DNA from: Parafrankia elaeagni
Lineage (GTDB): Bacteria > Actinomycetota > Actinomycetes > Frankiales > Frankiaceae
Length of the DNA stretch: 64,000 nt
Direction: 5' to 3'
Assembly (NCBI RefSeq): GCF_000374165.1
Contig: NZ_KB893672.1
Span: 115,002-179,001, forward strand
Shown here piece by piece: positions 11,655 to 53,584 of this stretch; the stretch's first letter is position 1, and every line of letters starts with the position of its first letter. A program made the position numbers and the translations under genes. The notes under the pieces were generated by a model. That model was not told where the DNA came from and did no database searches. It was given only the letters and a program-made list of their open reading frames with translations.

Positions 11655-14600
11655 CAGACGTTCCCCCCGTCGCTTTCGCTGCCGGAACCGCTGGTGGCCG
11701 CCGGGATCACGACGGCGGGGATCACGACGGCGAGCGGGCGCAGCAGCCGCTGGCTGGCGCGCAGCGAGCGCGCGATCTCCTCCTCGAGGCTGACCTGCTT
11801 CGACAGGCGGCGAACCTTCGCCAGCCCCGGCCCGGTCATGTCGAGTTCGAGCCGGGCGGCCTGCTCCCGCCAGCGGGTCCGCCGGTTCGACCAGCCGGCC
11901 AGCCGCCGTTCCAGGTCGGAGTGCTGGATGTCCTCGGCCATGTCGAGGGTGCGGGCCGCCGCGTCGATCGCGGCCGGCACCAGCGCGCGCAGCTCGTCGC
12001 TGACCGCCGCCGGGCCCGGGTTCACCGCCGGTTCCCGCTCGCCGGGCCCGGGGATCAGCCCGGTGCCCGCGAACAGCTCCAGTCCCTCGACGACCTGCGC
12101 GAGCGGCAGGTCGGCCCGGCCGGTCGGGAACTCGACGGCGACCATCTGGCGGGTCACGACCTGGCCGCGCCGGTTCATCAGCGTCGCGATCACCAGCACC
12201 CGCGGGGCGTCCACCGGCCCGCGCACCAGCGGCACCTCGTTGCGGCCGCCGGCCGCGAGCACCTTGTCCGCGGCCCAGTCGAGCACCGGGTGCAGGGGGG
12301 AGAGGAAATGAGCCTCCGGCCAGGTGGACGGGGTGGGCGCGGCGACCTCGCGGGCCTTCGCGGGACGTCCCGCGCGCTTCGCCGGGGTGAGACCCTTCGG
12401 CCCGCTCGCGGTCACCAGGGCCGACTGGGCCGGGGCGCCGCCGGCCTGCCCCTCGCGGGCCGCGCGTAGGCCGTCCAGCGCGACCGACGGGGTGACGGCG
12501 AGCAGCAGCTGCTCCCGGATCCCGCGCTCCGCGACGTACGACGCCGGCAGCGCGTCGAGGCGCACCCGCAGGTCGCGCGGCGGGCGCAGCGCGATCAGGC
12601 TCTTGTCCCGGAAGACCTTCCAGCCGACACCGCCGCGGGCCGGGTCCTTGTCGTCCGGCGCTCGGGTGGGATCGTCGTACACCTCGGCGACCGCGTCGGC
12701 GAGGAAATCGGCGTCGGTGGGGTACAGCGACTCACGCGGGCGGTCCGGGGGAACGGGCGGCAGGTCGTCACCGGCGGCGGCGAAATCCTCGTCGAAGAAG
12801 GAGTCGAAGAAGTCGTCGGCTCCGTGCCCCGCACCGGGGTCGGGCACGACCTCGTCCAGGTTCTGCCCGCGGGCGAGCGCGTCCCGGATCGCGTCTTCCT
12901 CGCCGCTCGCCGAATGCAGGTGCATCAGCGTCGCCGCGTCGCCCAGCGTCGTGTGGGCGAGGTGTTCCTTGGCCAGCAGGCGCTGCAACACCCGGATATC
13001 GCCGCTGAACCGGTCGTCGGAGGGCACCAGCGCCAGCGCCGTGATCCGCGGCGGGTGCTTCTGCCCGTACCGGTCGATCCGCCCGTTGCGCTGCTCGATC
13101 CTGATCAACGACCAGGGGATGTCGACGTGGATCAGGTGGTGGCACTGTGCGTGCAGGTTGACGCCCTCGCTGGCGACGTCCCCGGTGATCAGCAGCCGGA
13201 CGGGGCTCGCCGTCGTCTTGAAGTCGTCGACGATGCGCTCCTGCTCGACGTCCGGCAGGCCGCCGTGCATGACGGCGATCTGGTTGCGGGCGAGGCCCAG
13301 GAGGTCGGGCAGCTCGCGGGCGAGCCAGCGCAGGGTGGCGACCCGCTCGGCGAACAGCACCGCGCGGGTCGTCGAGCGGGCGCCGACACCGATGGTGCGC
13401 AGGTACTCGGCGAGCGCGGTGAGCTTGGCGCTCTCCCCGGCCAGGGCCAGCTCGGTGAGGTCGCGCAGCCGCTCGAGGGCCTGCCGTTCCGGCTCGTGAT
13501 CGCCGCCGCGCTGGGCGCCGCCGCCCTGGGCGGTGAGCCGCTTGAGGCGGGCCTCGGTGGTCTCCAGCAGCGCGGCGGGGGAGGAGAGGAACGCCTTCGC
13601 CAACGTCCACGGGAACAGCGCCGACCCGCGGCCCGCGACCGGGGACGGGCCGTCCTGCGGGTACAGCCAGGTCCGGGAGATCTCCGTGGCGATCGCGTCC
13701 TCCGCCGGCGAGGCGGCCACCGGGATCACCTCGGGCTCGGGGCGCAGCGCCCAGTCGGCGCCGACTTCCGCGGCGACCTCGGGGGAGTGGCGGTGCCGGC
13801 GGATGAACAGCCGCTCCACATCCGCGACGTCGTACTCGCCGTCCGGGCCGACGGCCGTCGGGTCGAGCAGCCGCAGCAGCTCCGCGAACGACTCCTTCTT
13901 CCCGTTGTGCGGTGTCGCCGACGCCAGGACCAGCGCCTCCGTGTTCGGCGCGAGAACCCGCGCGAGCTCGTTGTTCAGCGTGCCGGTGTTCGTCAGGTTG
14001 TGCGACTCGTCGATGACAACGACATCCCACCGGTGCCGTTCCAGAAAAGATCGGTACCGCGGCGATTTCAACGTGTCGATCGAGACGATGATGCGGCGGT
14101 AGAACGTGAACGGGTTCCGGCTCGCCGGCAGGTTCTGCCGCACCCGCTGCAGCCCGTCGCTGTCGAGCCGGACGAGCGGCAGCCCGAACCGGCACCACAG
14201 TTCGTGCTGCATCTGCTCCAGGACGTGCCGGGGCGTCACCACCAGCACCCGGTCGGCCCGCCCGCGCCGGGTCAGCTCCGCGAGGAGCATCCCGATCTCC
14301 AGGGTCTTGCCGAGGCCGACGGCGTCCGCGATGAGCACCCGGGGCCGCAGGTTCGCCGGGGACAGCGCGTGGGCGACCGCCCGTCGCTGGTAGTCGAGCC
14401 GGTCGACCAGCATCCCGTCGGCCACGGTCAGCGAGGTCTCGCCGGCCGGCATCGGCGTCCGGCGCAGGGTGGCCTCCAGCCACAGCCGGGTGCGCCGGTG
14501 CCGCGGGGAGCCGTCCGGGAGCAGCTCCGCCTCGCGGGGGTCCAGCAGCTCGATGTGGTCGAGCCCGCTGAAGAAGGTCGCCGTGGTCTCCCGCACGAGC

Positions 14601-14713
14601 TCACCGAGGCCGACCACCTCCAGCCGCCAGCCGTCCGTGCCCTGCTCGGCCCCTGTGACCAGCCACTCCTCGTCCCGGACCACCACGATCGAACCCGGCG
14701 CGAACGTCGTCAC
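11654..14713 (-). CDS. SNF2-family helicase/ATPase (DrmD-like).
   Basis: Motif I 'ADAVGLGKTLEIGML'; motif II 'VVIDESHNL'; 'LASATPHNG'; C-terminal helicase motifs. A GTG at 14713 is preceded by GAGGAG; the ORF track extends to 14755, so the alternative is a longer N-terminus. Confidence 0.85.
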   Translation of the reverse strand: MTTFAPGSIVVVRDEEWLVTGAEQGTDGWRLEVVGLGELVRETTATFFSGLDHIELLDPREAELLPDGSPRHRRTRLWLEATLRRTPMPAGETSLTVADGMLVDRLDYQRRAVAHALSPANLRPRVLIADAVGLGKTLEIGMLLAELTRRGRADRVLVVTPRHVLEQMQHELWCRFGLPLVRLDSDGLQRVRQNLPASRNPFTFYRRIIVSIDTLKSPRYRSFLERHRWDVVVIDESHNLTNTGTLNNELARVLAPNTEALVLASATPHNGKKESFAELLRLLDPTAVGPDGEYDVADVERLFIRRHRHSPEVAAEVGADWALRPEPEVIPVAASPAEDAIATEISRTWLYPQDGPSPVAGRGSALFPWTLAKAFLSSPAALLETTEARLKRLTAQGGGAQRGGDHEPERQALERLRDLTELALAGESAKLTALAEYLRTIGVGARSTTRAVLFAERVATLRWLARELPDLLGLARNQIAVMHGGLPDVEQERIVDDFKTTASPVRLLITGDVASEGVNLHAQCHHLIHVDIPWSLIRIEQRNGRIDRYGQKHPPRITALALVPSDDRFSGDIRVLQRLLAKEHLAHTTLGDAATLMHLHSASGEEDAIRDALARGQNLDEVVPDPGAGHGADDFFDSFFDEDFAAAGDDLPPVPPDRPRESLYPTDADFLADAVAEVYDDPTRAPDDKDPARGGVGWKVFRDKSLIALRPPRDLRVRLDALPASYVAERGIREQLLLAVTPSVALDGLRAAREGQAGGAPAQSALVTASGPKGLTPAKRAGRPAKAREVAAPTPSTWPEAHFLSPLHPVLDWAADKVLAAGGRNEVPLVRGPVDAPRVLVIATLMNRRGQVVTRQMVAVEFPTGRADLPLAQVVEGLELFAGTGLIPGPGEREPAVNPGPAAVSDELRALVPAAIDAAARTLDMAEDIQHSDLERRLAGWSNRRTRWREQAARLELDMTGPGLAKVRRLSKQVSLEEEIARSLRASQRLLRPLAVVIPAVVIPAATSGSGSESDGGNV

Positions 14714-15117
14714 GTAGCTCCTCGCCCCCCGATCCCCCATGCGCGAACGGCACAAGGGCGAGAAGTCACCCTATAGAGCCATCTATTTGCGCGAGTCGGG
14801 CCTGCCGATGGGGTGCGGAGAGCGACGGGGGCGGTCGGGTGAGGTCGCGGGCCGCCGGTGCATAGGCGCCGCATAGGCGCATAGCGGTCTGGGGCCCCTT
14901 CGTCGCACTCTGTGTGGGAGGTGGCATAAGGTGCCCGAAGGTGGGCGTACGCGGCAGCGCGTACGGGAGTGCCGATGGTGGGGGAGACGGTTCGGGCGGC
15001 AACGCCCTGCGCGTCGCCACGGCAGGCTGCATCCCACGACGAGGGGCACCGCGTCACCCCCGTGCCTGCCCCGAGGCCGCGGCACGCGGCGTCGGGTGGA
15101 GTGAGGGGGCGGGCGCG

Positions 15118-18100
15118 ATGGGGGCGAAGATCGTCGTCCATGGTCCGTGGAGCGGGCCGGGCGAGGAGAAGACCGCGGTCTACCTGCGCGATCATCTGGA
15201 CGAGCGGTGGACGGTCGTCTGCGGCCGCCAGCTCGTCGCCGGCTCGGGTACCCGTGACTCCGACTTCATCGTGGTCGGGCCGAACAGCGTCACCGTCATC
15301 GAGGAGAAGTCCTGGCGGGTCGACCTGATCGGCACCGAGGAGCGCTGGTACGAGCGCAGGACCATGGAGGAGCGGGGCAACCCGATCAACCAGGCCGTCG
15401 GTGTCGCCCGGATCCTCGCCGGCAACCTCACCCGCTATGACCGGCAGCTCGCCTCCGCGCTCAGGAGCGCCGCGCCGCCTGGCCAGAAGCAGCTGCACCT
15501 CGTCCACTCGCTGGTCGTGATGTCCTCACCCGAGGTCACCTTCCAGATCGAGGACCCGCGGGCGTCGAGCCAGGTCGTGCGGCTCGACGGCTGCGAGAAG
15601 CGCCTGCGCGAGATCGACCGCTCGGTCGCGGCGCACTTCGACCTGGCCCCGTTCCGCGAGGCGGTCCTGTCCGTCGTCACCGGTCTGCGGCCGCGGCCGG
15701 AGCTGCCGAAGATGCTCGGCGCCTACGAGATCGTCGGCAACCTCGAGCCGACCCCGCGGGGCCCCCGCTACGTCGGCAGGCATCCGGACGGCTCGGTGCG
15801 GGTGCTGCTCACCTACGAGCGCCAGGGCCTCACCGAGGCCGAGCTCAAGGCGAGCGACGAGCTGATCCTGCGCGAGTACGAAGCGATGCGGCGCCTCGCC
15901 CACCTGCATCGGGTCTTCCCCGTCGACCCGTACTTCGGCGTCCACGACGACCAGATGTGGGTCGCTCCGATGCGTCCGCCGGGCCCGAGCCAGAAGACGC
16001 TGCGTTATCTGATCCGGGCCGGGCGGCAGCCGTCGGCCGCCACCTTCGCCACCATCGCCGCGGACGCGTTCGCCGGGCTCGCCGACATCCACGCGGCGGG
16101 CATCACCCACCGGGCGCTGAACCCGAGCCGGATCCTGGTGACCCCGGAGACCAGCCGGGTCGTGTTCTCCGACTTCCTGATCGCGAAGATCGCGGACGAG
16201 CGCACGGTGATCGACGCGGACGACGTCGACCACGACGGCGGGCCGTTCCGGGCCCCGGAATGCCGACGCACCGCGCACCTGGCCATCCACCCGTCGGACG
16301 TCTACTCGCTGGCGCTGTGCCTGCTCGGCTGGTGGGAGCTGCGCCAGTCCGACCCGCCGCGCGAGCCGCAGGCGCCGCCGTCCCTGCCGGACCGGGTCCG
16401 CGCGGCGCTGAACGAGTGCTTCGCCGCGCTGCCGCAGGACCGCCCGTCGGCCCGCGAGGTGGCGGACCTGCTGGCCGCGCACCTGGCCGAGGAGCGCAAG
16501 CGCCTGGTGCGCCCCGCGCCGGGCGTGAAGATCGGCAAGTACGAGCTGGTGCGCCAGCTCGGTGACGGTGCCACCGCCACCACCTGGCTCATGCTCGACC
16601 GCGCGTTCGACGTCCACCACACGCTCAAGATCATGAAGTCGGCCGAGCTGGTGGACAACCTGCGCGGCGAGTTCGTCCTGCTGCACAAGCTCAAGCACGA
16701 CCGGATCGTCCGGGTGCACGACTACCTGCTCGAACCGCCCGGCCCGGCACTGATCTCCGAGTACGTCGAGGGCCGCACCGTCGCCCAGCTCGCGCCCCGG
16801 CTGCGCGGCAGCCTCGGCGCCGCCCGCCGGATCCTCGCCGACATCCTCGACGCGCTCGCGTATGCCCACCACCGTGATGTGCTGCACCGCGACCTGTCCC
16901 CGAACAACATCATCGTCGACGCGGACGACCGGGCGACCCTGATCGACTTCGGGGTGGCCTCCCGCGCGGAGGGCGAGGCGCACAGCCTGGTCGGCACGCT
17001 GCCCTACCAGGCGCCGGAGATCGCGGCGGACGGCGCCTGGTCGCCGGCGGCGGACCTGTACTCGCTGGCCGTGCTGGTCTTCGAGGCGCTCGTCGGCCGC
17101 CTGCCCTACGCGGTCGACGGAGCGCAGCGCAACAAGTACCTTCTCGTCGCCCCGTCGCCGGAGGAGATCGCGGCGGCGGGCACCGCCGGCACCATGTTCC
17201 TGGACGTCCTGGCCCGCGCCAGCCACCCGGACCCGGCGACCCGCTTCCCCTCCGCGGCAGCGTTCCGGGACGCCGTCGAGGCCGCGTTCGAACCGCCGCC
17301 CCTGCCGCCCCCGCAGGCGCTGCCGTTCCCGCCGGCCCTGTCGTTCCCGCCGGCCCCGCCGTCGACGCCGGCCGGGGCGGCCCTGCCAGCGGAGAGCGCG
17401 GAGACCGTACGGCTGGCCGTCCCCGCGCAGACCGACGCGGAGGCGCCGTCGTCCGCGGCTACGACAGCACCGGCAGCAGTGACAGCACCGGCAGCAGTGA
17501 CAGCACCGGCAGTGGTGGCGGTGCCGGCAGTGGTGGCGGTGCCGGCAGCGGCGGTGCGACCGACGGCGGTGGGGACGCCCGCCGACCAGGCGCAGCGTGA
17601 GCTGGTCGTCAACCCGGCCGTCGACGAGATCCGGCAGCTGTTCCGCAACAGCAGACTCGGCAACCGGGGCAACCGGGGACTGGACTCCGAGTTCGCCGAC
17701 CAGACCTACATCCCGACCCGTCTCGACGACAGGCTGATGCCGCGGATCATCGACCATCGGCCCCGGCTCGTCGTCTTCAGCGGGAACCCGGGTGACGGGA
17801 AGACTGCATTCTTGGAACGGCTCGGTGTCGAGCTGCGGCGCCGCGGCGCGCGCGTCCTGGAGAGCGACGCGGCCGGCTGGCGGATGACGCTCGACGGGCA
17901 CGAGTTCGCCTCGGTCTACGACGCCAGCGAGTCGCACGAGGGCATCTCGGCGGACCAGCTGCTGCGCCGTGCGCTCGACCCGCTCAACGACCAGGCCAGG
18001 GACGGTCGCTACACCGCGCTGCTGGCCGCGAACGACGGCCGCCTGCTCGACTTCTTCGACCGCGAGGCCCACCGTTACCCGCGGATCACGCAGGTGCTCG

Positions 18101-19341
18101 GCGGTGGCGCCGGGACCGACGCCGACGCCGGGGGCGGCGCAGAGGCCGAGGCCGGTGCCGGTGGAACCGGGAACGCCGCGGGTGTGCTGCGGATCGATCT
18201 CAAAGGCCGGTCGATGGCGTCGGTGGGCCTGGCAGCAGGCTCGCTGACGGTGCGCATGCTCGACGCGCTGCTGACCGACGAGCTGTGGGCGGCGTGCGGC
18301 GGCTGCGCGGCCGAACACCGCTGCCCGATCGCGGCCAACGCCCGCGGCCTGCGTGACGGGCGGGTCCAGGAGCGGCTGCACCGGCTGGTGCTCACCTCGC
18401 ACCTGCGCCGCGGCCGCCGCCCCACGATCCGTGATCTGCGTTCGGCGCTCGCCTACCTGGTGACCGTCGACCTGGGCTGCACCGACATCCACGCCGAGTT
18501 CGGTGACGGTTTCGGGAATCCCGCCCGCCCGGAGCGGCACTTCAGCGCGGCAGCGTTCGGTGCCGAGGCCGGGCGCGACCGGCTGCTCGACGAGTGGCGC
18601 AGCCTGGACCCCGCAGCGGTGCCGGCGCCGCGGGTGGAGCGGTGGCTGGCACCCGGCACCCGTTCCCCGGCGGACATCGCCCGCGCCAAGCGGCTCCGGT
18701 ACTTCACCGCGACCGACGCGGAGCTCGCCGCCGTCGACCACCTCGGCCCGTACCAGCATCTCGACGAGTTCCGCGCCCTGCTCGCCAAGCCCACCCCCGG
18801 CCCCGGCGGTGCCGACGCAGGCCCCGGCGCGGCAGGCCCCGAGGCGGCAGGCCCCGGCGCGGCAGGCCCCGGGGCGGCGGGGCACCGGGTCGCGGTGGTG
18901 TCGAAGCTGCTGCGCGGCCTGTCACGCTGCATCGGGCCGGTCGGCTACGACGGCGACGGGGTCGCGGTCTCGGTGGGCGAGCCCTCCGAAGAGGGCGGCG
19001 CGGTCGTCAAAGTGCTGCCCACCGACGAGTTCGACGTCGTCGTGGCGGACGTCGACGACCGGTTCGTCGAGACGGCGGCCGACATCGTCATCCTCCGGCA
19101 CCGTTCCGGGCAGGTGAGCCTGCCGGTCGACGTCGACCTGTTCGAGCTGCTGATGCGCGCGAACGCCGGCTTCCTGCCGACCAACCCCGAGGTCGCGCCG
19201 CTGCTGGAGGAGCTGGGCCTGTTCCGCTCCGGCCTCACCCTCCAGCCAGCCAGCCGGGTGATCATCATCGAGCCTGACGGCCGGCGGAACGTCATCAGGG
19301 TGACCGGAACGACCATCGAGCTGCTGCGGGACGTCCGATGA
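15118..19341 (+). CDS. Multidomain NERD nuclease-like domain, degenerate (pseudo)kinase, active Hanks-type Ser/Thr kinase, Ala/Pro-rich linker and P-loop NTPase protein; PglW-like.
   Basis: NERD-like 'EKTAVYLRDHL...DSDFIVVGPNSVTVIEEKSW'. Kinase 1 is degenerate ('ITHRALNPSRILV', 'SDF'). Kinase 2 is canonical ('LKIMK', 'VLHRDLSPNNIIVD', 'DFG', 'GTLPYQAPE'). C-terminal Walker A 'VVFSGNPGDGKTAFL'. An ATG at 15118 follows a GAGGGGG Shine-Dalgarno; the upstream 68 ORF codons are Gly-rich junk. The stop overlaps the next start (ATGA). Confidence 0.8.
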   Translation: MGAKIVVHGPWSGPGEEKTAVYLRDHLDERWTVVCGRQLVAGSGTRDSDFIVVGPNSVTVIEEKSWRVDLIGTEERWYERRTMEERGNPINQAVGVARILAGNLTRYDRQLASALRSAAPPGQKQLHLVHSLVVMSSPEVTFQIEDPRASSQVVRLDGCEKRLREIDRSVAAHFDLAPFREAVLSVVTGLRPRPELPKMLGAYEIVGNLEPTPRGPRYVGRHPDGSVRVLLTYERQGLTEAELKASDELILREYEAMRRLAHLHRVFPVDPYFGVHDDQMWVAPMRPPGPSQKTLRYLIRAGRQPSAATFATIAADAFAGLADIHAAGITHRALNPSRILVTPETSRVVFSDFLIAKIADERTVIDADDVDHDGGPFRAPECRRTAHLAIHPSDVYSLALCLLGWWELRQSDPPREPQAPPSLPDRVRAALNECFAALPQDRPSAREVADLLAAHLAEERKRLVRPAPGVKIGKYELVRQLGDGATATTWLMLDRAFDVHHTLKIMKSAELVDNLRGEFVLLHKLKHDRIVRVHDYLLEPPGPALISEYVEGRTVAQLAPRLRGSLGAARRILADILDALAYAHHRDVLHRDLSPNNIIVDADDRATLIDFGVASRAEGEAHSLVGTLPYQAPEIAADGAWSPAADLYSLAVLVFEALVGRLPYAVDGAQRNKYLLVAPSPEEIAAAGTAGTMFLDVLARASHPDPATRFPSAAAFRDAVEAAFEPPPLPPPQALPFPPALSFPPAPPSTPAGAALPAESAETVRLAVPAQTDAEAPSSAATTAPAAVTAPAAVTAPAVVAVPAVVAVPAAAVRPTAVGTPADQAQRELVVNPAVDEIRQLFRNSRLGNRGNRGLDSEFADQTYIPTRLDDRLMPRIIDHRPRLVVFSGNPGDGKTAFLERLGVELRRRGARVLESDAAGWRMTLDGHEFASVYDASESHEGISADQLLRRALDPLNDQARDGRYTALLAANDGRLLDFFDREAHRYPRITQVLGGGAGTDADAGGGAEAEAGAGGTGNAAGVLRIDLKGRSMASVGLAAGSLTVRMLDALLTDELWAACGGCAAEHRCPIAANARGLRDGRVQERLHRLVLTSHLRRGRRPTIRDLRSALAYLVTVDLGCTDIHAEFGDGFGNPARPERHFSAAAFGAEAGRDRLLDEWRSLDPAAVPAPRVERWLAPGTRSPADIARAKRLRYFTATDAELAAVDHLGPYQHLDEFRALLAKPTPGPGGADAGPGAAGPEAAGPGAAGPGAAGHRVAVVSKLLRGLSRCIGPVGYDGDGVAVSVGEPSEEGGAVVKVLPTDEFDVVVADVDDRFVETAADIVILRHRSGQVSLPVDVDLFELLMRANAGFLPTNPEVAPLLEELGLFRSGLTLQPASRVIIIEPDGRRNVIRVTGTTIELLRDVR

Positions 19342-21017
19342 CACTGCGCATACCCAGGGAGCTGCGCTCCTACCAGTTCGACCGGCTGACCGGCGTCGAG
19401 CTGAACGACTTCGACGTCGACCGGTTCCTGCCCGTGCTGTTCGAGATGGTGGAGACGAAGGGCCGTCGGTTGGCCCGGTCGAACGCCGACGCGACGGATC
19501 CGGACAGGTACGTCGAGGCGCTCGCCGCGCACCCGAACCTGCACGGCTTCGACGACGAGCACGGCCGCGCGGTGCTGACACAGTGGGTCAACAGCAGCGT
19601 CGTCCGGCTCGGCCACAGCGGCCGTGGCCACCGGGACGTCCAGCTGGCCGCCGTCCAGCCGATCCACATCGGCGCCTACCGCGCCGGCCTGCCGGTCGAG
19701 GGCACCCGGCACCGCAAGGTGCACCTGGTCGTCTACCGGCTGCTGAAGGACGCGCTGCTGCGCCGCGGCGCCACCGACCCGGAGCAGACGCTGCAACGGC
19801 TGTTCCGGGAGGCGTTCGGCCGCGGTGTCACGATCGACTCGCAGTTCGTCCCCGCCTTCGACGGGAAGACCGACGACCTCGACGCGAACGTCCTGCTCAG
19901 CCTCTACTACCTGGAGGGCTTCCAGCCCGGCAAGGTGCTGACCCGCCGGACCGAGCTCGACTGGAGCCCGGTCATGCCCGGGTTGATGATCTCCCTCGGC
20001 GACCTGCTGCTCGACTTCCTCACCGTCTACCGCAACCGGCTGCCCACGACCGCGCTGGCGCGTCACCTGGCCGCGCTGCTCAACATCGGCCTGTTCACGA
20101 TGACGCTGCGGCTGTTCAGCGTGGTCGGCGAGCTGTGCCGCGGCGGGGACGGCGGGGGCGGCGGCGACGGCGAGAACCGGCCGCTGCCGGCCGACCTCAG
20201 CCGCGACCTGCATCCCGCCCGCACCGAGATCTACGTCGACTTCACCCGCCAGACCGGCGGTGACTCCGACCGGCTGGCCGGCGAGTGCGTCGCCCGCGAC
20301 CTGGAACGGCTGCCCGCCTACTTCGAGGACATGATCCTGCTCAAGACCCTCGACCGGTACGCGAGCAGCGAGCAGAAGCTCCGGCCGTACGTGGAGGGCC
20401 GGCGCGGCCCGGACTGGCTGGTCGCCCTGGTCGGGATCCGCGACCTCGAATACGTCGAGTGGCGCGCGGGCCTGGACCTCGAACGGATCGTCGACACGAC
20501 CCGGGCCGAGCTGCGGACGTCCGAGGAGGACGCCCGGGCGGAGCTGGCCGGCCTCGCGCCCGGCGGGTCGCAGCTGGACGTCCTGCTCGCGGCACTGCGC
20601 CAGTCCCAGGCGTCGAAGGCGGTGACCAGCGCCGGTAGCTGGCTGTGGAACACCGGTGGCCTGCGCAAGCAGGCAGGGCTGCTGCGCGGGAACCTGCACG
20701 GCCGGCGGGCGTGGCGGTACGCGATGACCGACGAGCTGCTCACCACCATGCTGTTGACCACCCTGATGGACCGGGCGGCCGGCGCCCCGGCGCCCCGGGT
20801 GCGACTGGCCGACCTGCTCGACACCCTGGAACACCGCTGGGGCCTGCTGATCCACCGTCCACCCGCCGCGCGCGACGACGCGTCCGCGCGTGCGGTCGCG
20901 AGCCAGAACCTGGCGGCCTTCACCGGCCGGCTGCACCAGATGGGCTTCTTCGCTGACCTCGCCGACGACTTCAACGCCCAGTATGTGATCAACCCCCTTG
21001 CCGGAGCGCGGCGATGA
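19338..21017 (+). CDS. Hypothetical 559-aa protein, middle gene of the kinase operon; no recognisable domain.
   Basis: Its start overlaps the upstream stop (ATGA) and its stop overlaps the downstream start (ATGA). GC3-rich codon usage on this strand. Confidence 0.6.
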   Translation: MTLRIPRELRSYQFDRLTGVELNDFDVDRFLPVLFEMVETKGRRLARSNADATDPDRYVEALAAHPNLHGFDDEHGRAVLTQWVNSSVVRLGHSGRGHRDVQLAAVQPIHIGAYRAGLPVEGTRHRKVHLVVYRLLKDALLRRGATDPEQTLQRLFREAFGRGVTIDSQFVPAFDGKTDDLDANVLLSLYYLEGFQPGKVLTRRTELDWSPVMPGLMISLGDLLLDFLTVYRNRLPTTALARHLAALLNIGLFTMTLRLFSVVGELCRGGDGGGGGDGENRPLPADLSRDLHPARTEIYVDFTRQTGGDSDRLAGECVARDLERLPAYFEDMILLKTLDRYASSEQKLRPYVEGRRGPDWLVALVGIRDLEYVEWRAGLDLERIVDTTRAELRTSEEDARAELAGLAPGGSQLDVLLAALRQSQASKAVTSAGSWLWNTGGLRKQAGLLRGNLHGRRAWRYAMTDELLTTMLLTTLMDRAAGAPAPRVRLADLLDTLEHRWGLLIHRPPAARDDASARAVASQNLAAFTGRLHQMGFFADLADDFNAQYVINPLAGARR

Positions 21018-24000
21018 CCGATCTCAGCCCCCTGCTGGCCACCCGGGTCGCCCACCGGCTGGTGACCGACTTCCTGCAGGCAGCACCCCCCGGCCGCTGC
21101 CTGCGGCTCGATCACCTTCGCCTCGACGACTGCCATGCGGTACGCGACGCGGCGATCGCCGCACTCGCCGAAACAGCGATGGGCGCCGGCTGCGTGGTCG
21201 CCGTCCTCGGCACCGACGTCAGCGCCAGCGACGCGATCGTCTCCCCCGAACGCGCGATCGAGCTGCGTAACCGCAAATCGACCGCGCTCCTGCTGCTCGT
21301 GCCCGCGGGCACCGACAGCCCGGCGGCCAGCAGCCTGGACAACTCGTTCGAGTCGATCGACATCGAGGACCTGTTCGGGAAGATCATTCGGGACGCGCTG
21401 CAGCCGCTTGACCGGCCCCTGCGAGAGCTGTTCGCCGAAGTCCAGGCGGCGGCGCGCGGCAACGCGTTCCCACGCTCACGCCAGGCCCGGGCCGAGTACC
21501 TGCTCGCCGTCGGTGCCACCGCCGCCGACCCGGTCGCGGGCGGCCTCGCGGCCGCGCAGCACGTCGCCGGAACGCACCTGCACCTGTTCGGCCTGATCCC
21601 GGACCAGGGCGGCGCGTCATTCGTCTCCCGGCTCGCCGCGAACGCCCAATGCGTCAAGGAACTGGTCAAACCGGCCCGCTCGCAGACGGACGCACGCACC
21701 CGGCTCGCGGAATGCCCGCTGCGCCAGGACGACGAGCGCTACCGCGAGATCGAGCGGTACCTCGTCGCACTGCCCCGCCTGTCCCAACGGGCGTGGCTGC
21801 GCGACCTGGCCTCCGACGACAACGCCGACCTGGCCTTCAACCGCTGGCCGCTGGACCTCCCCACCGACAGCGACCTGATGGCGCTGCAGGTCGAGCCGTT
21901 CGCCAACGCCGAAGGGATCATCGCGGCGAGCACCGGCCTGCGCGCCGGCGCGGACGGCGAGGCACCCACCTGCTCGGCCCGCGGCGGCTTCGTGAAGATC
22001 ACCTGGACGACGGAACCCGCCAAGCCGAAGGACGTGGCCCGCTGGCAGGTGGAGATCATCCCGTCGGAGGAGTTCTACGGCGCCGAAACCGATTTCGACG
22101 TCACCCTGCCCGCGGCGAAGGTAGCCGGCAGCAGGCACAGCCACCGGCTGACGGTGAACGTCGACACCGAAGAGGCCGAACGGGTGCCGGCGCTGGTGAC
22201 CGTCCGGGTCAGCGCCCTGGACCGCAACAACCAGGTGCTGCGGCTGCGTGACGGTGCCCCCGCCCAGGCCACCAGCAAGGAGTTCGCGCTCGACGACGCG
22301 CCGCCGCCGGAGAGCACCGCCGTCCGGCGCGACACCGCGGTCTCCCTGCCGGTGGCGCGGCTGCGCGCCGAACAGGCCGGCGCGGACACCGACATCGAGA
22401 CGCCCGAAGGCTGGCAGACCGCCGACCTGGCCTACCTGCAGCTGCGCTTCGGCCGGGGCAGCAGGACACACCTCACCCGGATCGGAGTGAGCGCACCGCT
22501 GCGCGAGCTGTCCACGCGCGTACTCGCCGAGCCGGAGACCGTCGGCAGGTACGAAGCCGAGGTGGGCGGCGGCCAGCTGCTCGCCGCGGCGACCGCCACC
22601 GCGGCCGGCCCCGACTGGCCATCGGGCGCGGGCCGGGCGTTCCTCGCCGCCCGCCGGGAGTTCTTCGAGGCGGTCCGCGCCCAGCCCGGTCGCGGCCTGC
22701 TCGAAGTCGCCGCCGTCTCCGACGAGCTGGCCGCGCTCGGGGCGAAGTACACCGCTGCCTACGGACGGATCCTGCGCCGGGACTCCAGCGCCCCCGACCC
22801 GCGGGTGCTCACCTCGATCGACACCCTTCGGCTGCGCATCCGCCTCGGCCGGCGCCACCCGGTGGACGCCCTGATCATGCTGCCCACCCATCCGCTGCGC
22901 GTTGCCTGGTACCTCGGCTACCACGCCGAGCTGGAACAGTGGCGCACGAAAATGCGGACACTGGCGGCGAAGGACCGCCGCGACGACGCCGACCTCGACC
23001 TGCTCGCCAGGCTGTCACCCGCCCGGCTGCCGTTCCTGCTCGCCGGCCCGGACGGCGCGCCCCACGTGTTCGCGCAGAACCTGCGGCTGCTCTACGGGCT
23101 GTACCTACCCGTGGACGAGGCTGACCCGGCGACGGCTGTCAGCGAGACGGTGACCGTGCTCGGCCTGCCGAGCGCCGATGCCAGCGTCGGCGAAGTGCCG
23201 CCCGCCCGGCTCGCCGACCGCATCCGGCTCTACCGGAACACTCACCGCAGCCCCGAGCGGCTGCGGATCCTGGCGACCAACCCGGGCAGCGGCGAGTTCC
23301 TCGGTGAGGCCCTGCGCGTCGTCACCGCCGACACCGGCGATCTCGCTGACACGGGCGACCCCGCCGGCACCGGCACCGGCACCGGCACCGGCACCGGACG
23401 CGAGCTCGGCGAGGACGAGGCCGTCACGGCGCCACACGTCTGGATCGAGGTGTTCGGCGAGGGCGCCTCGGAGACGAACCCGCTGCCCGGCCTGCGCCAG
23501 CTGCAGCGCGACATCGCCGACAACCGCACCCGACGGAGCAGCGACTTCCTCGACCCGGCGCTGGAGATCTCCGCCGCCCCCTTGGACGCGATCGAAGCAG
23601 CCCGGGACGCCCATCTGGCGGTGCTCGCCGACATCAGCCGCCCCCAGCTGCACATGAGCGTCGCCGAAACCAGCGGCGGCAGCGTCTCCTTCCGTGGGCT
23701 CATTACCCAGCTGGTTACCCGACGCGACCCGACCGAGCTCGCCTGGGACGTGGGGATCGAGTTCCCCACGGCGCGCGGCGCGGACTCCACACCCGTCACC
23801 GACCTGCACCGTCGCTTCGCCGAAACCGTCTCAAGCCTGTTCACCGCCGGCGGGGACGAGACGACGAGCGGAGACCGTACGGCGGCCAGCGCCGACCCGG
23901 CTGACCCGGCTGACCCGGCTGACCCGGCGAGGGACGACCGGGCCATGCGGACGGCCCGGATCCGAGTCCAGGTCGACGGCGACACCCGACGGGTGCTCGG

Positions 24001-26248
24001 CCTCGCGCATGACCGGTGCGACTGGGTCGTCGTCCTGGACCGTTTCCTCGGCCTGGACCTGTTCGACGACCCGTCGCGGCGATCCTTCGACGGGCGGCGC
24101 TACATCCTCGACTACGCGCCCGAGTTCCTCGACGGCCTCGGCCACCAGATGGCCATCACGACGGCGCACCGGGCCGACGTCGAGAAGATGTTCCTGCGGG
24201 CGATGACCGAGCTCGGTTTCGAACAGCCCGGTGAGTCGGTGTCCTCGGTGGTCGACGAGCTGCTCCTCGTCTCCGGCCGGCTGATCCTCGCCGCGACCGG
24301 CAACGACAAACGCGCCAAGGAGGCAGTCGCGCTCGCCGCCGTCGTCTCCCATCTGCGCCGGCGCGGCGAACTCGCCGACACGATCATCATCCCGGTTGAC
24401 GCGCACCTCGACCTGTTCGGGCCGCGCGCCCACCGCGGCGGCGCCCACGGCGAGAAAGCGCGACGCTGTGACCTGCTGCTGGTGCGCTTCCCGGGACGCC
24501 GGCTGCACATCGAGGCCGTCGAGGTGAAATCACGCGGGATGCTCGACAGCGAAGACCTCGCCCGCGGCATCGACGCTCAGGCCCGGGCGACCATCGACGT
24601 CGTCCAGCGGCTGTTCTTCGCCGAGCCGGCGCGCATCGACCAGCCGCTGCAACGGACCCGGCTCGCCACCCTGCTCCGGTACTACCTGCGGCGCGCGGCG
24701 CGACGCGGGCTGATCACCGACGCGGCGACGTTCGGCCGGATGCAGGAAGGCATCGACCGGCTCGACACCGCCGACCCCTCGGTCTCCTACCAGCAGAGCG
24801 GCTACATCCTCGTCCAACGAGGCGACGGCGTGGACGAGTTCACCATGGGCGAGACGCGCATCCACCCACTGACAGCCGCGGACCTCGGGGTCGAGACTCC
24901 CGCTGCGGACACCCCCGCGGACACCCCTGCCCTGGACGTGGACGGAACGCCTGAGTCGCCTGAGCGGCCGGAACTGCCTGAGCGGCCGGAACTGCCGGAG
25001 TCGTCGGGATCATCGGAACCGTCGGAACCGTCGGAACCGTCGGGATCGTCGGGATCGTCGGGATCGTCTGAGGGTGAGCGGTCCGGGCAGTCCGACGCCT
25101 CCGACGCCTCCGACGTGGCACCGGCCGGTGGCGAGACGTCCAGCCCGACATCCGTCCCGGAGACCGGCGGAGCCTCCGTGCGTCGTGCTTCTTCTGGCGC
25201 GCTGGAAGTCGTCCGGGTGCCGGTCGGACGAACACTGCCCCCGGAGGAGGACGTCGTCTGGGAAGTTGCCACGATCGGCAGCCCCCACCTGTTCATCCTC
25301 GGAATTCCCGGGCAGGGGAAGTCGGAGACGACGATCCGGCTGCTGCAGGGCGCCGCCGGGAGTGGCCTGCCCGCGCTGGTCATCGACTTCCACGGCCAGT
25401 TCAGCTCCGACCCACGCCGTCCTCGGTCACTGCGGGTGCAGGACGCGGCGGCCGGGCTGCCGTTCTCACCGTTCGAGCTGACCGAAGCCGGCGGACGGCA
25501 CGCGTACAAGATGAACGCGCTGTCCATCTCGGAGATCTTCGCCTACGTCTGCGGACTGGGCGACATCCAGCGCGACGTGGTCTACCAGGCTCTGATCAGC
25601 CGCTATGAGGCGCACGGCCACGGTCAGCTCGCGCCGCCGCAGGGCATCCCCACACTGGACGAGGTACGCGACGCCATCGCGGCCCTGGAGAAGGAACGCG
25701 GGGTGGCGAACGTCCTCGCCCGCTGCCGCCCATTGCTCGAATACGGCCTGTTCACCGACAACACCGGTGTGAAGGTGCAGGACCTGATCCGCGACGGCCT
25801 GGTGGTCGACCTGCACGGCTTCGCCGAAGTGGAACAGGCGCAGGTCGCCGCCGGTGCGTTCCTGCTCCGCAAGATCTACAAGGACATGTTCACCTGGGGC
25901 CAGAGCGGGGAGCTACGGCTCGCCATCGTCCTCGACGAAGCACACCGCCTCGCCAAGGACGCGACCCTGCCCCGGCTGATGAAGGAAGGCCGCAAGTTCG
26001 GCGTCGCCGTCGTCGTTGCCAGCCAGGGCATAGACGACTTCCACCCCGACGTCCTCGCCAACGCCGGCACCAAAATCATCTACCGGGTCAACTACCCGCA
26101 GTCCCGCAAGGCAGCCGGATTCCTGCGCACCCGCACCAGCAAGGACCTCTCCGAGGAACTCGAGCAGCTCCCGGTCGGCAACGCCTACGTCCAGACCCCG
26201 AACATGGCTGTCGCCCGCCGCACCCGCATGCTCCGCCCCGAGACGTGA
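21014..26248 (+). CDS. 1744-aa protein with a C-terminal HerA/FtsK(DUF87)-like P-loop ATPase domain; the N-terminal 1300 aa are uncharacterised.
   Basis: Walker A 'ILGIPGQGKSETT'; Walker B 'LAIVLDEAHRLA'; 'VVVASQGIDDFHPDVLANAGTKIIYRVN' is typical of HerA/DUF87 ATPases. An acidic/Pro/Ser linker 'ESPERPELPERPELPESSGSSEPSEP...' and a (GT)5 repeat are present. Confidence 0.7.
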   Translation: MTDLSPLLATRVAHRLVTDFLQAAPPGRCLRLDHLRLDDCHAVRDAAIAALAETAMGAGCVVAVLGTDVSASDAIVSPERAIELRNRKSTALLLLVPAGTDSPAASSLDNSFESIDIEDLFGKIIRDALQPLDRPLRELFAEVQAAARGNAFPRSRQARAEYLLAVGATAADPVAGGLAAAQHVAGTHLHLFGLIPDQGGASFVSRLAANAQCVKELVKPARSQTDARTRLAECPLRQDDERYREIERYLVALPRLSQRAWLRDLASDDNADLAFNRWPLDLPTDSDLMALQVEPFANAEGIIAASTGLRAGADGEAPTCSARGGFVKITWTTEPAKPKDVARWQVEIIPSEEFYGAETDFDVTLPAAKVAGSRHSHRLTVNVDTEEAERVPALVTVRVSALDRNNQVLRLRDGAPAQATSKEFALDDAPPPESTAVRRDTAVSLPVARLRAEQAGADTDIETPEGWQTADLAYLQLRFGRGSRTHLTRIGVSAPLRELSTRVLAEPETVGRYEAEVGGGQLLAAATATAAGPDWPSGAGRAFLAARREFFEAVRAQPGRGLLEVAAVSDELAALGAKYTAAYGRILRRDSSAPDPRVLTSIDTLRLRIRLGRRHPVDALIMLPTHPLRVAWYLGYHAELEQWRTKMRTLAAKDRRDDADLDLLARLSPARLPFLLAGPDGAPHVFAQNLRLLYGLYLPVDEADPATAVSETVTVLGLPSADASVGEVPPARLADRIRLYRNTHRSPERLRILATNPGSGEFLGEALRVVTADTGDLADTGDPAGTGTGTGTGTGRELGEDEAVTAPHVWIEVFGEGASETNPLPGLRQLQRDIADNRTRRSSDFLDPALEISAAPLDAIEAARDAHLAVLADISRPQLHMSVAETSGGSVSFRGLITQLVTRRDPTELAWDVGIEFPTARGADSTPVTDLHRRFAETVSSLFTAGGDETTSGDRTAASADPADPADPADPARDDRAMRTARIRVQVDGDTRRVLGLAHDRCDWVVVLDRFLGLDLFDDPSRRSFDGRRYILDYAPEFLDGLGHQMAITTAHRADVEKMFLRAMTELGFEQPGESVSSVVDELLLVSGRLILAATGNDKRAKEAVALAAVVSHLRRRGELADTIIIPVDAHLDLFGPRAHRGGAHGEKARRCDLLLVRFPGRRLHIEAVEVKSRGMLDSEDLARGIDAQARATIDVVQRLFFAEPARIDQPLQRTRLATLLRYYLRRAARRGLITDAATFGRMQEGIDRLDTADPSVSYQQSGYILVQRGDGVDEFTMGETRIHPLTAADLGVETPAADTPADTPALDVDGTPESPERPELPERPELPESSGSSEPSEPSEPSGSSGSSGSSEGERSGQSDASDASDVAPAGGETSSPTSVPETGGASVRRASSGALEVVRVPVGRTLPPEEDVVWEVATIGSPHLFILGIPGQGKSETTIRLLQGAAGSGLPALVIDFHGQFSSDPRRPRSLRVQDAAAGLPFSPFELTEAGGRHAYKMNALSISEIFAYVCGLGDIQRDVVYQALISRYEAHGHGQLAPPQGIPTLDEVRDAIAALEKERGVANVLARCRPLLEYGLFTDNTGVKVQDLIRDGLVVDLHGFAEVEQAQVAAGAFLLRKIYKDMFTWGQSGELRLAIVLDEAHRLAKDATLPRLMKEGRKFGVAVVVASQGIDDFHPDVLANAGTKIIYRVNYPQSRKAAGFLRTRTSKDLSEELEQLPVGNAYVQTPNMAVARRTRMLRPET
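23366..23397 (+). repeat. (GGCACC)5 hexanucleotide repeat encoding a (GT)5 linker in the 1744-aa ATPase protein.
   Basis: ggcaccggcaccggcaccggcaccggcaccgga. Confidence 0.85.
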
Positions 26249-27285: not shown

Positions 27286-29667
27286 TCACCGAGTCGGGTC
27301 AGAGTGGCCGGGGCCGGGGCCGGGGCCGGGGTTGGGTTCGGGGAGCTGGCGAATCCCTGCCCACACGGTGTCACGAGCCCGCGTGATCGCCACGTACAGC
27401 TGTCGGCGTTCCAACCGGGTGCGTTCATGGAACGCGTCGGCAGCCTCGGAAGGGCGCCGGGGGCCGGGGAAGAGATTACGGTCGGGTAGGCAGACATGGG
27501 CGAAGTCGAGGGCCTTGGCGCGGTGGTACGTTCCGACCTTGACGCCTTCACCGTTGGTTCCGTCGTAGTCCATCAGCGATATTGCCGGAATTCCGTGCCC
27601 AGCGAGCACCCGCAGCCAGTGGAACTCTGCCTCGTTCGTCGACACGAGCACGGCCATGTCGCCATACCGGATATCTCTGTCGGCATGCAGCTCCGTGAGA
27701 TGCTTGCACAGTGCCGTGTCCTGCGCGGCGGTGTCTGGCACGGTGACTTCCGTTATCTCACCTCCGGGGCGCTCGATGTCGACGTCGCGCTGTCCGCGTT
27801 CCGGGGTGCCGTCGAGATCGTCGAAGCTGTCGTCGGCGATCACTGTCTGGGCGTGGTGCAGGATCTCCGCCCGGTTACGGTAGTTTCGCGTCAACACCGT
27901 GGAACGTCCCACGACGGGGACACCTGCCTCGGCGAGGGTGAATCCGCCCGGGTAGATGGACTGCTGACCGTCGCCGACGACAAGCAGGCCGTCGGGCTTG
28001 TCTCCGACGAAGGCGTGCAGCAGTTGGAGGCCGACACACGTCAGGTCCTGCACCTCGTCGACGATCACCGCGTCGTAGCGGGTCTCGGAACTTTCGCGAA
28101 CCAGGTCACGAGCCAGGAGCAGCACATCGTCGCGGTCGAGGACACCGCGTTCCGTTCGGAGCTGCTCGTACCGTTCGTAGAGATCCCAGACCGCGCGTCG
28201 GTGGGCCGGTTGCAGCGGCGTACTGCGTCCTACTCGCGCCAGTCCGGCGTACTGCGAGTAGGAGGTGAGGCCCCGGCCCTTGATGACGATCGCGATCTCG
28301 TCCTGCCAGTACTGGGGGCCGAGACCGAGTCCGAGGCCGGGCAGGACCGAGTGCTGTCCAACCTGCGCCCAGGCCCGTGAGAAGCAGGTGTCGGCGATGT
28401 CCTGCAGGTGCCGGCCCGCCAGGTCGTGATCGCGAAGACAGCGGGCGGCGACGGCGTGGACGTTGATGAACTCGATGCGCTCGACATGATCGGGCGCCAT
28501 CCGGGTCAGCAGAGCGCGGTAGACCGGACCAAGCGTGCGCACCTTCGACGTGAACAGCACCCGGTCTCCGCGGGTGGCCAGGAACTTGGCGCGATGTAGC
28601 GCGACGACCGTCTTGCCGGTGCCCGCCGCGCCCCGGACACGTGCCGGACCAGACCACTTCCGGCCGGCAAAGCGCGCCTGCGCCGGGTGCAGCCAGGTCA
28701 TCCATGTCTCGATCGGTTCACGGGCGGCGGCGTTGAGCAGCTCCTGCCACAGTTCGTCGCGACTCAGCAACGAGCCCTGACCGGTCAACGGACCTTCACC
28801 CGGTTCACCGGCCTCCGAGAGGTCGGGCCGGGCCGACGGCCCTGGGGCGGACGTCCGCCTGCCGGCGGGGGGCGGATCTTCCCGGCGTGCCAGCGGGTGT
28901 CCCGCCGGCCGGGAGGTCAGCACTACCTGGTGCGCGGCGCGGGGCATCGGAGGACATCCACGCTCCAGTTCGTCCAGTAGCCGTTCGACGAGGTCAGGGG
29001 TCAGGCGAGCGCCCCGACGCGCCAGCTCCCTGGCGAGGTCGTGCTCCCCGAGCACGGTCACCGCGTCGATCGGTTCCCGGATGTTCCTGCGCCCGGCCAG
29101 GGCGAGCAGCGCCACCACCTCGGTCGGTGGCAGGCCCGCATCTGCCAGCACCTCCGCCACCGCGGCGGCCTGATCCACAAGCTTGCGAATGTCGTCATCC
29201 GCATCGGCGTCGCCGCGCCACAAACGGCCGCGCTCGACGGAGGCCTCCCGCCAGTTCTTCACGTCCACGACGAAGACCCCGCCGGGCCCCACCAGGATCA
29301 CGTCGATGTTGGCCCTGCGGGTGCCCGGCCACTGCCTGTCCGGCAGCACATGCCACCCGGCATTCTCCATAGCTATCAGCGCCCGGGTCACGTTCTGCTC
29401 GGCCCGGCCACCGGCTTCCCACCGCTGGCGATGGCGGTTCAGCTGGTGCTGGGTGTCGTTCAGATGCTGGATCTGCCGCTCGACTCCGGCGATCTCCATG
29501 CCGAGCAGCACGGCCTGACCGAGGGCGGACGGCTCCGGCAGCGAGCGGATGCCCCTCGCTGCTCTGGCGCCCGGGAGCGCCGCGGTGGTGCGGGGCCGCG
29601 GCCTCTCTGCATCGACGGTCGGAACAGCAGTGTCGGGGAGCATCGACGGTGATTCGTGGGCACGCAC
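27286..29667 (-). CDS. NERD-domain protein fused to a UvrD/REP-like superfamily-1 DNA helicase.
   Basis: NERD 'NIDVILVGPGGVFVVDVKNWRE'; Walker A 'GAAGTGKTVVALHRA'; Walker B 'DAVIVDEVQDL'; C-terminal helicase motifs 'DFAHVCLPD...YVAITRARD'. Confidence 0.8.
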   Translation of the reverse strand: MRAHESPSMLPDTAVPTVDAERPRPRTTAALPGARAARGIRSLPEPSALGQAVLLGMEIAGVERQIQHLNDTQHQLNRHRQRWEAGGRAEQNVTRALIAMENAGWHVLPDRQWPGTRRANIDVILVGPGGVFVVDVKNWREASVERGRLWRGDADADDDIRKLVDQAAAVAEVLADAGLPPTEVVALLALAGRRNIREPIDAVTVLGEHDLARELARRGARLTPDLVERLLDELERGCPPMPRAAHQVVLTSRPAGHPLARREDPPPAGRRTSAPGPSARPDLSEAGEPGEGPLTGQGSLLSRDELWQELLNAAAREPIETWMTWLHPAQARFAGRKWSGPARVRGAAGTGKTVVALHRAKFLATRGDRVLFTSKVRTLGPVYRALLTRMAPDHVERIEFINVHAVAARCLRDHDLAGRHLQDIADTCFSRAWAQVGQHSVLPGLGLGLGPQYWQDEIAIVIKGRGLTSYSQYAGLARVGRSTPLQPAHRRAVWDLYERYEQLRTERGVLDRDDVLLLARDLVRESSETRYDAVIVDEVQDLTCVGLQLLHAFVGDKPDGLLVVGDGQQSIYPGGFTLAEAGVPVVGRSTVLTRNYRNRAEILHHAQTVIADDSFDDLDGTPERGQRDVDIERPGGEITEVTVPDTAAQDTALCKHLTELHADRDIRYGDMAVLVSTNEAEFHWLRVLAGHGIPAISLMDYDGTNGEGVKVGTYHRAKALDFAHVCLPDRNLFPGPRRPSEAADAFHERTRLERRQLYVAITRARDTVWAGIRQLPEPNPGPGPGPGHSDPTR

Positions 29668-30945: not shown

Positions 30946-30961
30946 GAGCGTAGGAAAGCAG

Positions 30962-33040: not shown

Positions 33041-33050
33041 GGCCGGCAGC

Positions 33051-53316: not shown

Positions 53317-53584
53317 CAGGACACCGGCGAGCCTCGGTCACGGACCTGCCGCTGCAGCCCGGCATCAGCCCGTTCGGCCTGGCCGCCGCCGAGATGATGT
53401 ACGCCGGGGTCGTGACCCGGATCGGCGGTGGCGTCGACAGTCCCCAGAGGGGTCCAGACCCTCACGAGGTCGGCCATGCGCGGTCGGGTCCAGTGCGGGT
53501 CAACGATGGTTTGTGCACCCAACCAGCACTAATGCGAACCTGAACCTGCAGGTGGGGGGCGCGGATCCTGGCCAGGACGGGATC

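Follow-up and report, generated by a model that had tools for sequence, protein, structure and literature searches.

The methylation-associated defence system (MADS) is encoded by the eight-gene operon mad1-8 of Pseudomonas aeruginosa SMC4386 and protects against several phages (Maestri et al., bioRxiv 10.1101/2023.03.30.534895; Cell Host Microbe 2024). The preprint (bioRxiv 10.1101/2023.03.30.534895) describes MADS of P. aeruginosa as dependent on methylation. Defence was lost when any one of mad2-4 and mad6-8 was missing, and mad5 can be deleted only if mad2 or mad3 is deleted as well. The detection model of the preprint treats MAD6-8 as mandatory and MAD1-5 as accessory; 33 MADS were counted in Streptomyces, other Actinobacteria are hosts as well, and incomplete operons and probable subtypes were described. 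Here, we analysed a stretch of 64,000 nucleotides from Parafrankia elaeagni (contig NZ_KB893672.1, positions 115,002 to 179,001 of the forward strand), referred to below as the window, in which three chained plus-strand genes (genes 1-3, the trio) lie head-to-head with a second operon. We conclude that the trio most probably represents the MAD6-MAD7-MAD8 core of MADS, within the DndFGH/SspFGH restriction family, and that it is separate from the adjoining ARMADA-type system.

The architecture of this restriction family has been dissected by Rakesh, Aravind and Krishnan (NAR 2024, PMC10853773). The core of DndF is a derived P-loop kinase to which N-terminal domains are optionally fused, including a NERD domain together with an inactive and an active Ser/Thr/Tyr kinase, while DndG is a triple winged helix. 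DndH, of about 1700 aa, combines an inactive SNF2 domain, an inactive methylase with target-recognition domains, an active restriction endonuclease (REase) and a HerA/FtsK ATPase; its N-terminus comprises an inactive SWI2/SNF2 C-domain, a helix-turn-helix and two beta-sandwiches. The DndFGH module is commonly decoupled from the Dnd modification genes (PMC10853773). SspFGH damages non-modified DNA and blocks phage replication, and DndFGH is credited with nickase and translocase activity in PMC11662687. A survey of bacteriophage exclusion (BREX) systems (PMC12839542) furthermore described the triad of NERD domain, pseudokinase and kinase as common to PglW and a subset of DndF proteins.

An earlier annotation made from the DNA letters alone (the sequence-only reading) had regarded the operon as an unnamed, novel system and had itself designated homology searches as the means of overturning this view. 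Such searches placed the trio in a named system, MADS/DndFGH-SspFGH: genes 1 and 2 pass the MAD6 and MAD7 cut-offs, gene 2 already carries the MAD7 label, and the architecture is in print (PMC10853773, PMC12839542). MADS received its name in 2023-24, the fusion architecture has been in print since 2024, and RefSeq lists gene 2 as MAD7. The trio thus belongs to a family that had been both named and dissected before, and its novelty as a system is low. Three modestly interesting comparative points concern the core being usually without a methylase partner in the clade of the trio, a frequent UvrD-like fourth gene, and the equivalence of MADS and DndFGH.

Assignment of the three genes

Gene 2 matched the NCBIfam equivalog model of MAD7 (NF047733) over its full length with 442.8 bits, above the cutoff of 410, and PADLOC returned mad7 and also SspG. 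NCBI lists an identical (100%) Parafrankia elaeagni protein under the name "methylation-associated defense system protein MAD7", with the Pfam label PF26611 (MAD7). Exact-sequence look-ups of genes 1 and 3 and of the YprA gene of the adjoining operon returned no entry, probably owing to differing start calls. Our own Pfam scan, run as a domain check together with genes 1 and 3, gave no match for gene 2, and tblastn of gene 2 against plasmids gave none either. Structure prediction, which covered gene 2 and the middle region of gene 3, had been suggested for gene 2 by the sequence-only reading; the model obtained displays the triple winged helix of DndG.

Gene 1 passed the NCBIfam equivalog model of MAD6 (NF047741) with 502.4 bits against a cutoff of 460 and matched the PADLOC model mad6 at 4.3e-52. 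In agreement with the sequence-only reading, Pfam and conserved motifs revealed a NERD domain, a degenerate kinase, a canonical kinase and a Walker A motif in one polypeptide; Pfam itself reported NERD, two Pkinase stretches and a weak AAA_16 match. Residue conservation was assessed in alignments of 51 gene 1 and 56 gene 3 homologues from related loci. In the NERD domain, D49 and K64 are kept in 51/51 sequences and E63 in 50/51. The first kinase carries HRA and SDF and, across all 51 homologues, always reads HR[A/G] and never HRD, so that the catalytic Asp is missing. The second kinase holds LKIMK, HRD, DFG and APE; K504, D592, N597 and E634 are present in 51/51 homologues and DFG in 50-51 of them. 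When the C-terminal 577 aa (aa 831-1407) were scanned alone, three PADLOC SspF models matched at 1.5e-18, 3.3e-16 and 1.8e-14. Both the Walker A motif GNPGDGKT and an N972-D973 pair are invariant (51/51), and the latter may be the counterpart of the Asn-type Walker B/ND motif of DndF. The hallmarks of a DndFGH/SspFGH F subunit, namely a P-loop kinase core, a canonical Walker A and, with the N-D pair as candidate, an Asn-type Walker B or ND motif, were in this way recovered in gene 1. Pro/Ala/Val low-complexity repeats lie between the kinase and the P-loop core (window ~17350-17700).

Gene 3 matched the PADLOC models DndH (1.5e-25) and, on the C-terminal ATPase, mad8 (1.9e-17), and several of its homologues carry the JGI name DptH. 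As anticipated by the sequence-only reading, the protein ends in a HerA/DUF87-type ATPase (Pfam TrwB_AAD_bind and DUF87). Comparison of the C-terminus with the PDB yielded HerA (4d2i, 1e-8) and the C-terminal domain of DptH (7es4, 7e-5). The Walker A and Walker B motifs and the sensor Q1671 of this domain were found in 56/56 homologues. The middle region gave a weak SspH match in PADLOC, and its structure model showed a class I methyltransferase-like fold in which no [DNS]PP[YFW] motif was found, followed by a nuclease domain. The nuclease motif sits on predicted beta strands of this model, with D1153 kept in 56/56 homologues and E1170 and K1172 in 54/56. Gene 3 is accordingly predicted to combine the inactive methylase fold, the active REase, the C-terminal HerA/FtsK ATPase and the length of about 1700 aa that mark the H subunit of DndFGH/SspFGH. 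Low-complexity PE(R/L)PE, SG(S)S and SEP repeats precede the HerA domain (window ~24880-25180), and shorter TG and ADP repeats occur further upstream in the gene; the low-complexity repeats of genes 1 and 3 are likely flexible tethers.

Taken over both alignments, the nuclease, kinase, Walker A/B and sensor-Q motifs are kept in 50-56 of 51-56 homologues, so that all predicted catalytic activities of the trio appear to be under selection.

With MADS the trio shares the same three-gene core of NERD/kinase protein, MAD7 and giant ATPase, with two of the three genes above the NCBI equivalog cut-offs. With DndFGH, DptFGH and SspFGH it shares the F-G-H gene order, an F core with intact Walker A and invariant N-D pair, and an H subunit of about 1700 aa with inactive methylase fold, REase motif and a HerA/FtsK ATPase with sensor Gln; like the trio, the DndFGH module often stands alone, without a modification module. 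Judged by hidden Markov model (HMM) matches, the DndG fold and conserved motifs, the MAD6-8 core is demonstrably a module of the DndFGH/SspFGH family, and no statement of a link between MADS and DndFGH was found in the literature examined that mentions both systems. The link supplies concrete candidate catalytic residues for MADS restriction.

Several observations weigh against the assignment. The operon lacks MAD1-5 (regulator, methylase, specificity subunit, ATPase and the DUF4276 nuclease Mad4): the MAD1-5 models matched neither in the operon nor among the window open reading frames (ORFs) scanned. The sole nearby methylase in Parafrankia is the type IIG enzyme of another system. Gene 3 stays below the MAD8 equivalog cutoff (NF047742; 52 bits over aa 27-226 only, cutoff 175), and its sequence matches to DndH and SspH fall mainly within the C-terminal ATPase. 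The C-terminus of gene 1 matched DndF models at E ~0.06 only, so that the link to the F subunit depends on SspF. Outside the ATPase the similarity to DndF and DndH models is weak, and the clade of the trio groups with MADS and not with canonical Dnd. The model of gene 2 reached only a moderate predicted local distance difference test score (pLDDT 66). Dnd/Ssp modification models were absent from the PADLOC matches listed for the window ORFs scanned with that library (several smaller ORFs were scanned with NCBIfam alone), and unlike in Dnd and Ssp loci no phosphorothioate modification genes were seen nearby among these matches. Finally, a 2026 review lists the restriction mechanism of MADS as unknown.

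All three plus-strand ORFs were confirmed. The GC content of the window is ~72%, and long ORFs therefore arise by chance on either strand; genes 1, 2 and 3 were nevertheless read as real because their codon-position GC pattern is typical of genes (GC content at third codon positions, GC3, of 0.92, 0.93 and 0.89). The genes are chained by ATGA stop/start overlaps at 19338-19341 and 21014-21017, exactly as the sequence-only reading had stated. In homologous loci, the gene 1/2 junction is a 4-base ATGA, GTGA or TTGA overlap in 39/53 cases and the gene 2/3 junction an ATGA or GTGA overlap in 27/53. The overlaps and the recurrent NTGA junctions support a co-expressed, translationally coupled three-gene defence operon, as had been proposed. 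The beginning of the operon had to be revised: it had been placed at 14756, where no start exists. The ORF of gene 1 opens at GTG 14914, but homologue alignments begin at ATG 15118 (MGAKIVVHG). Because homologues align from there and a purine-rich stretch resembling a ribosome-binding site (RBS), GGAGTGAGGGGG, precedes it, ATG 15118 is the likely start, which gives a product of ~1407 aa. The intergenic region between the SNF2 gene and MAD6 furthermore contains a tandem 10-mer, GCATAGGCGC x2, at 14860-14880 and a perfect 8-nt palindrome, CGTACGCG/CGCGTACG, at 14946-14965, which may be operator sites. Consensus scans of the flanking intergenic regions for sigma-70 promoters and terminators found none. 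The coordinates of all features are collected in Table 1.

Table 1. Features of the trio and of its surroundings (window positions; aa, amino acids)
Feature	Position	Strand	Evidence
Gene 1, MAD6, DndF/SspF-type subunit with N-terminal NERD, pseudokinase and kinase, 1407 aa	15118..19341	+	NCBIfam, PADLOC, GC3 0.92
NERD (PD-(D/E)xK) nuclease domain, gene 1 aa 15-135	15160..15522	+	Pfam PF08378 1.4e-13
Degenerate kinase (pseudokinase), gene 1 ~aa 200-465	15715..16512	+	Second Pkinase stretch; PADLOC kinase matches aa 202-459
Canonical Hanks-type Ser/Thr kinase, gene 1 ~aa 473-740	16534..17337	+	Pfam Pkinase 4e-44
DndF/SspF-like P-loop (nucleotide-kinase-like) core and C-terminal domain, gene 1 ~aa 865-1407	17710..19338	+	PADLOC SspF
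Gene 2, MAD7, DndG/SspG-type DNA-binding subunit, 559 aa	19338..21017	+	NCBIfam, PADLOC, existing annotation
Gene 3, MAD8-like, DndH/DptH-type giant subunit, 1744 aa	21014..26248	+	PADLOC DndH, mad8
Class I methyltransferase-like Rossmann fold, then nuclease domain, gene 3 middle region, aa 560-1300	22691..24913	+	Structure model
PD-(D/E)xK restriction-endonuclease motif, gene 3 D1153...E1170-V-K1172	24470..24529	+	Conservation; predicted beta strands
HerA/FtsK-type ATPase domain, gene 3 aa 1393-1740	25190..26233	+	Pfam TrwB_AAD_bind, DUF87
Divergent intergenic region, SNF2 gene to MAD6, 362 nt	14756..15117	.	Holds tandem repeat, palindrome and RBS-like stretch
SNF2 (BrxHII/DrmD-like) helicase, first gene of ARMADA-type operon, not part of trio	11654..14755	-	HMM matches DrmD/BrxHII
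Type IIG Eco57I/MmeI-like restriction-methyltransferase, 1569 aa	6945..11654	-	PADLOC REase_MTase_IIG 1330 bits; Pfam Eco57I; NCBI name
YprA-family helicase, DEAD, Helicase_C and MZB domains, DruE-like, 2287 aa	85..6948	-	HMM matches
NERD-UvrD (GajB-like) SF1 helicase	27286..29667	-	HMM matches; best PADLOC model C3a187

Conservation of the trio and its relation to the neighbouring operon

A genome scan with the MAD7 alignment retrieved 65 loci, mostly from Actinomycetota and Chloroflexota. The sequence-only reading had proposed to examine synteny across actinobacterial genomes, and the trio indeed showed one gene order on one strand wherever the sequence was long enough, that is in 48/48 complete loci from the two phyla. 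The MAD7 family is small, with 493 clusters at 50% identity (E <= 1e-3). In 19 actinobacterial loci, of which 18 belong to the 48 complete loci, a UvrD-like superfamily 1 (SF1) helicase of 520-590 aa abuts MAD6 upstream on the same strand. This gene sets the loci apart from the described DndFGH modules; no description of it was found in the literature examined, and it may represent a fourth component of the MADS/DndFGH subclade to which the trio belongs. The helicases in question (19 loci between L006 and L065, e.g., L007:4582-6198) are devoid of a NERD domain, and their best PADLOC model is C3a187, 'NERD+UvrD'.

The divergent operon upstream of the trio had been called DISARM-like, but its set of SNF2 helicase, type IIG methylase and YprA helicase fits ARMADA (Bell et al., bioRxiv 10.1101/2025.09.15.676423) better. 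A BrxHII/RapA-like SNF2 helicase, a PglX-like type IIG methylase and a YprA-family MZB helicase were found in one operon, in the gene order of Type II and of some archaeal and cyanobacterial Type I systems. The likeness extends to three genes; the fourth gene of Type II, a RelE-GajB helicase, would fall left of window position 85. The published description of ARMADA, in contrast, is without MAD6-8. In Pseudofrankia (74% identity), Geodermatophilus and Mycolicibacterium (L070-L072), close relatives of the SNF2 gene belong to the same helicase-methylase-YprA operon and have no MAD6-8 nearby, and the SNF2 family numbers >6600 relatives, more than ten times the MAD7 family. Because each occurs without the other and the SNF2 family is more than tenfold larger, we interpret the trio and the divergent operon as systems that are independent of each other but share one defence island. 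The idea that the trio regulates its neighbour is not supported, as the trio lacks this operon in most related loci and the operon lacks the trio in the three genera named above.

It has to be considered whether the two operons nonetheless form a single composite system in which the type IIG methylase marks self DNA in place of the Pseudomonas MAD1-5 components. Parafrankia sp. FMc2, P. soli and Frankia nepalensis (L001, L002, L005) preserve the head-to-head layout. The trio also has an SNF2 helicase and/or an Eco57I-type methylase for a neighbour in Cellulomonas (L006) and Nocardioides (L058, L061), in one case on its own strand. The methylation dependence of MADS in P. aeruginosa points in the same direction, as does a distant actinobacterial relative, Streptomonospora alba (L069), where an N6_Mtase and a mad5-like specificity subunit stand directly upstream of MAD6. 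However, such SNF2/methylase neighbours were seen in only ~6/43 loci with enough upstream sequence, and a Pfam census of 114 non-redundant flanking ORFs found no methyltransferase family matched by at least two ORFs. This census replaced a regex scan of the flanking ORFs for methylase motifs, the hits of which proved mostly false positives on Pfam check. The trio moreover resides amid housekeeping genes in Thermogemmatispora and in a Planctomycete-like genome, whereas the SNF2/methylase/YprA set constitutes a self-contained, named system with close relatives that are without the trio and a far larger family. On the grounds of locus distribution and flank census, the composite system was rejected as the main interpretation and appears unlikely to us.

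What recurred in the census were IS110 transposases, GmrSD and integrases, and other defence genes in the flanks of the trio included GmrSD, CHAT-STAND, PLD-helicase and SoFic. In L069, the N6_Mtase, the mad5-like subunit and MAD6-7-8 all lie on one strand (807-15409), and canonical-type MADS therefore occurs in Actinomycetota as well; the mad5-like subunit was found only there. A pPIWI_RE (prokaryotic Argonaute-related) cluster follows at 18079-25409 of the same locus. In Frankia nepalensis, an additional stand-alone Ser/Thr kinase of 424 aa is inserted between the SNF2 gene and MAD6 (L005:4620-5894, minus strand). In Nocardioides caldifontis (L061:1-6213), MAD6-8 share one strand with a UvrD-like helicase, an SNF2 helicase and a methylase fragment; no other single observation hints as strongly at a methylase-linked version in the trio clade.

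With the trio assigned to the MAD6-8 core and kept apart from the ARMADA-type operon, the question arises how self DNA would be marked. The mark could come from the type IIG methylase next door or from some other methylase of the host, or there could be no mark at all. As a tentative extension, we consider it possible that the Actinomycetota/Chloroflexota clade of the trio represents a methylase-independent, self-contained MADS core, i.e., a restriction machine of the DndFGH type, in many cases accompanied by a UvrD-like helicase of its own, that discriminates self from foreign DNA without a dedicated modification gene, and that in Parafrankia may secondarily share the ARMADA methylation mark. 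Discrimination may then depend, for example, on the kinase and P-loop sensors, or on the site at which the HerA/FtsK pump engages DNA. If true, this would make MADS and DndFGH/SspFGH explicitly one family. The comparison of loci shows that the core of a "methylation-associated" system travels in two phyla without a recurrent methylase. The pairing of trio and ARMADA in Parafrankia offers a natural test case for one methylation mark common to two restriction modules.

Proposed mechanism and alternative readings

By analogy with DndFGH, SspFGH and MADS, from which complex formation, DNA translocation and nicking are transferred to the trio, the three proteins probably act as a restriction complex that targets DNA and is driven by ATP. 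Being translationally coupled, they would assemble into one complex, in which MAD7, as a DndG-like winged-helix protein, and the inactive methylase/target-recognition region of MAD8 would bind DNA. The HerA/FtsK ATPase of MAD8 would then move along the DNA, or pump it, at the expense of ATP, and the PD-(D/E)xK nuclease of the same subunit would nick or cut DNA judged foreign, thus stopping the replication of phages or plasmids. The P-loop core of MAD6 might act as a nucleotide-binding sensor or regulator, while its active Ser/Thr kinase, together with the pseudokinase, and its NERD nuclease might serve as regulatory or back-up effectors.

The sequence-only reading had instead placed the kinase at the centre, with the trio as a phosphorylation-based phage sensor, abortive-infection module or regulator and the partner proteins as accessories. 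The active-kinase motifs are invariant in the 51 homologues, the pseudokinase-kinase tandem is always kept, and the best PADLOC matches of the kinase domain are stand-alone defence kinases (PD-T4-6); Rakesh et al. (PMC10853773) also proposed fused kinase and NERD domains as back-up, possibly suicidal, effectors. Yet the kinase tandem is one among several alternative N-terminal add-ons to the DndF core (PMC10853773), here attached to a DndF/SspF core, and the nuclease and DNA-pump motifs of the partner proteins are equally conserved. As the relatives SspFGH and DndFGH act on DNA and the trio has no fixed link to the neighbouring system, a purely phosphorylation-based module seems improbable to us.

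The further possibility that the trio is a variant or a remnant of BREX type 2 (Pgl), in which gene 1 would play the part of a PglW, had already been discounted by the sequence-only reading and is effectively refuted: the likeness of gene 1 to PglW (Streptomyces coelicolor) was borne out, with NERD, pseudokinase and kinase in the same order and aa 45-398 and 473-813 of gene 1 collinear with the PglW profile (an architecture noted as common in PMC12839542), but NCBIfam PglW scored 127 bits against a cutoff of 990, the C-terminal half is SspF/DndF-like where PglW has a triad of winged helix-turn-helix domains and an inactive STAND, no PglX, PglY or PglZ partner stands beside the trio, PglX models match the neighbouring type IIG methylase only weakly, and no PglZ, PglY/BrxC, BrxD or BrxHI appeared among the matches listed for the window ORFs scanned.

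Other features of the defence island

The second NERD protein that had been noticed downstream of the trio is present, with the correction that it is a NERD-UvrD helicase encoded on the minus strand. It is a possible accessory of the trio, albeit by a weak link. We do not equate it with the UvrD-like gene that precedes MAD6 in related loci: the two share the best PADLOC model, but only 25% identity (40 bits).

Within the ARMADA-type operon, the type IIG methylase gene stands out by a GC content of 0.67-0.68 (window 6001-10000) compared to 0.73-0.77 in its neighbours, which could reflect a swapped or fast-evolving target-recognition region. To the right of the NERD-UvrD gene, an SPFH/Band-7 protein (30911-33040, plus strand) is followed by a 1844-aa protein with DUF3686, DUF7902 and AAA_5 (32817-38351, plus strand). 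PADLOC and NCBIfam gave no match for either protein, and the pair may constitute an uncharacterised two-gene module. A Fic-domain protein at 53533-54756 (plus strand; PADLOC SoFic, 5.9e-43) represents a further defence gene of the island. Finally, an IS607-family element with TnpA (serine recombinase) and the RNA-guided nuclease TnpB was located at 39716-41613 (plus strand) and marks the region as mobile.

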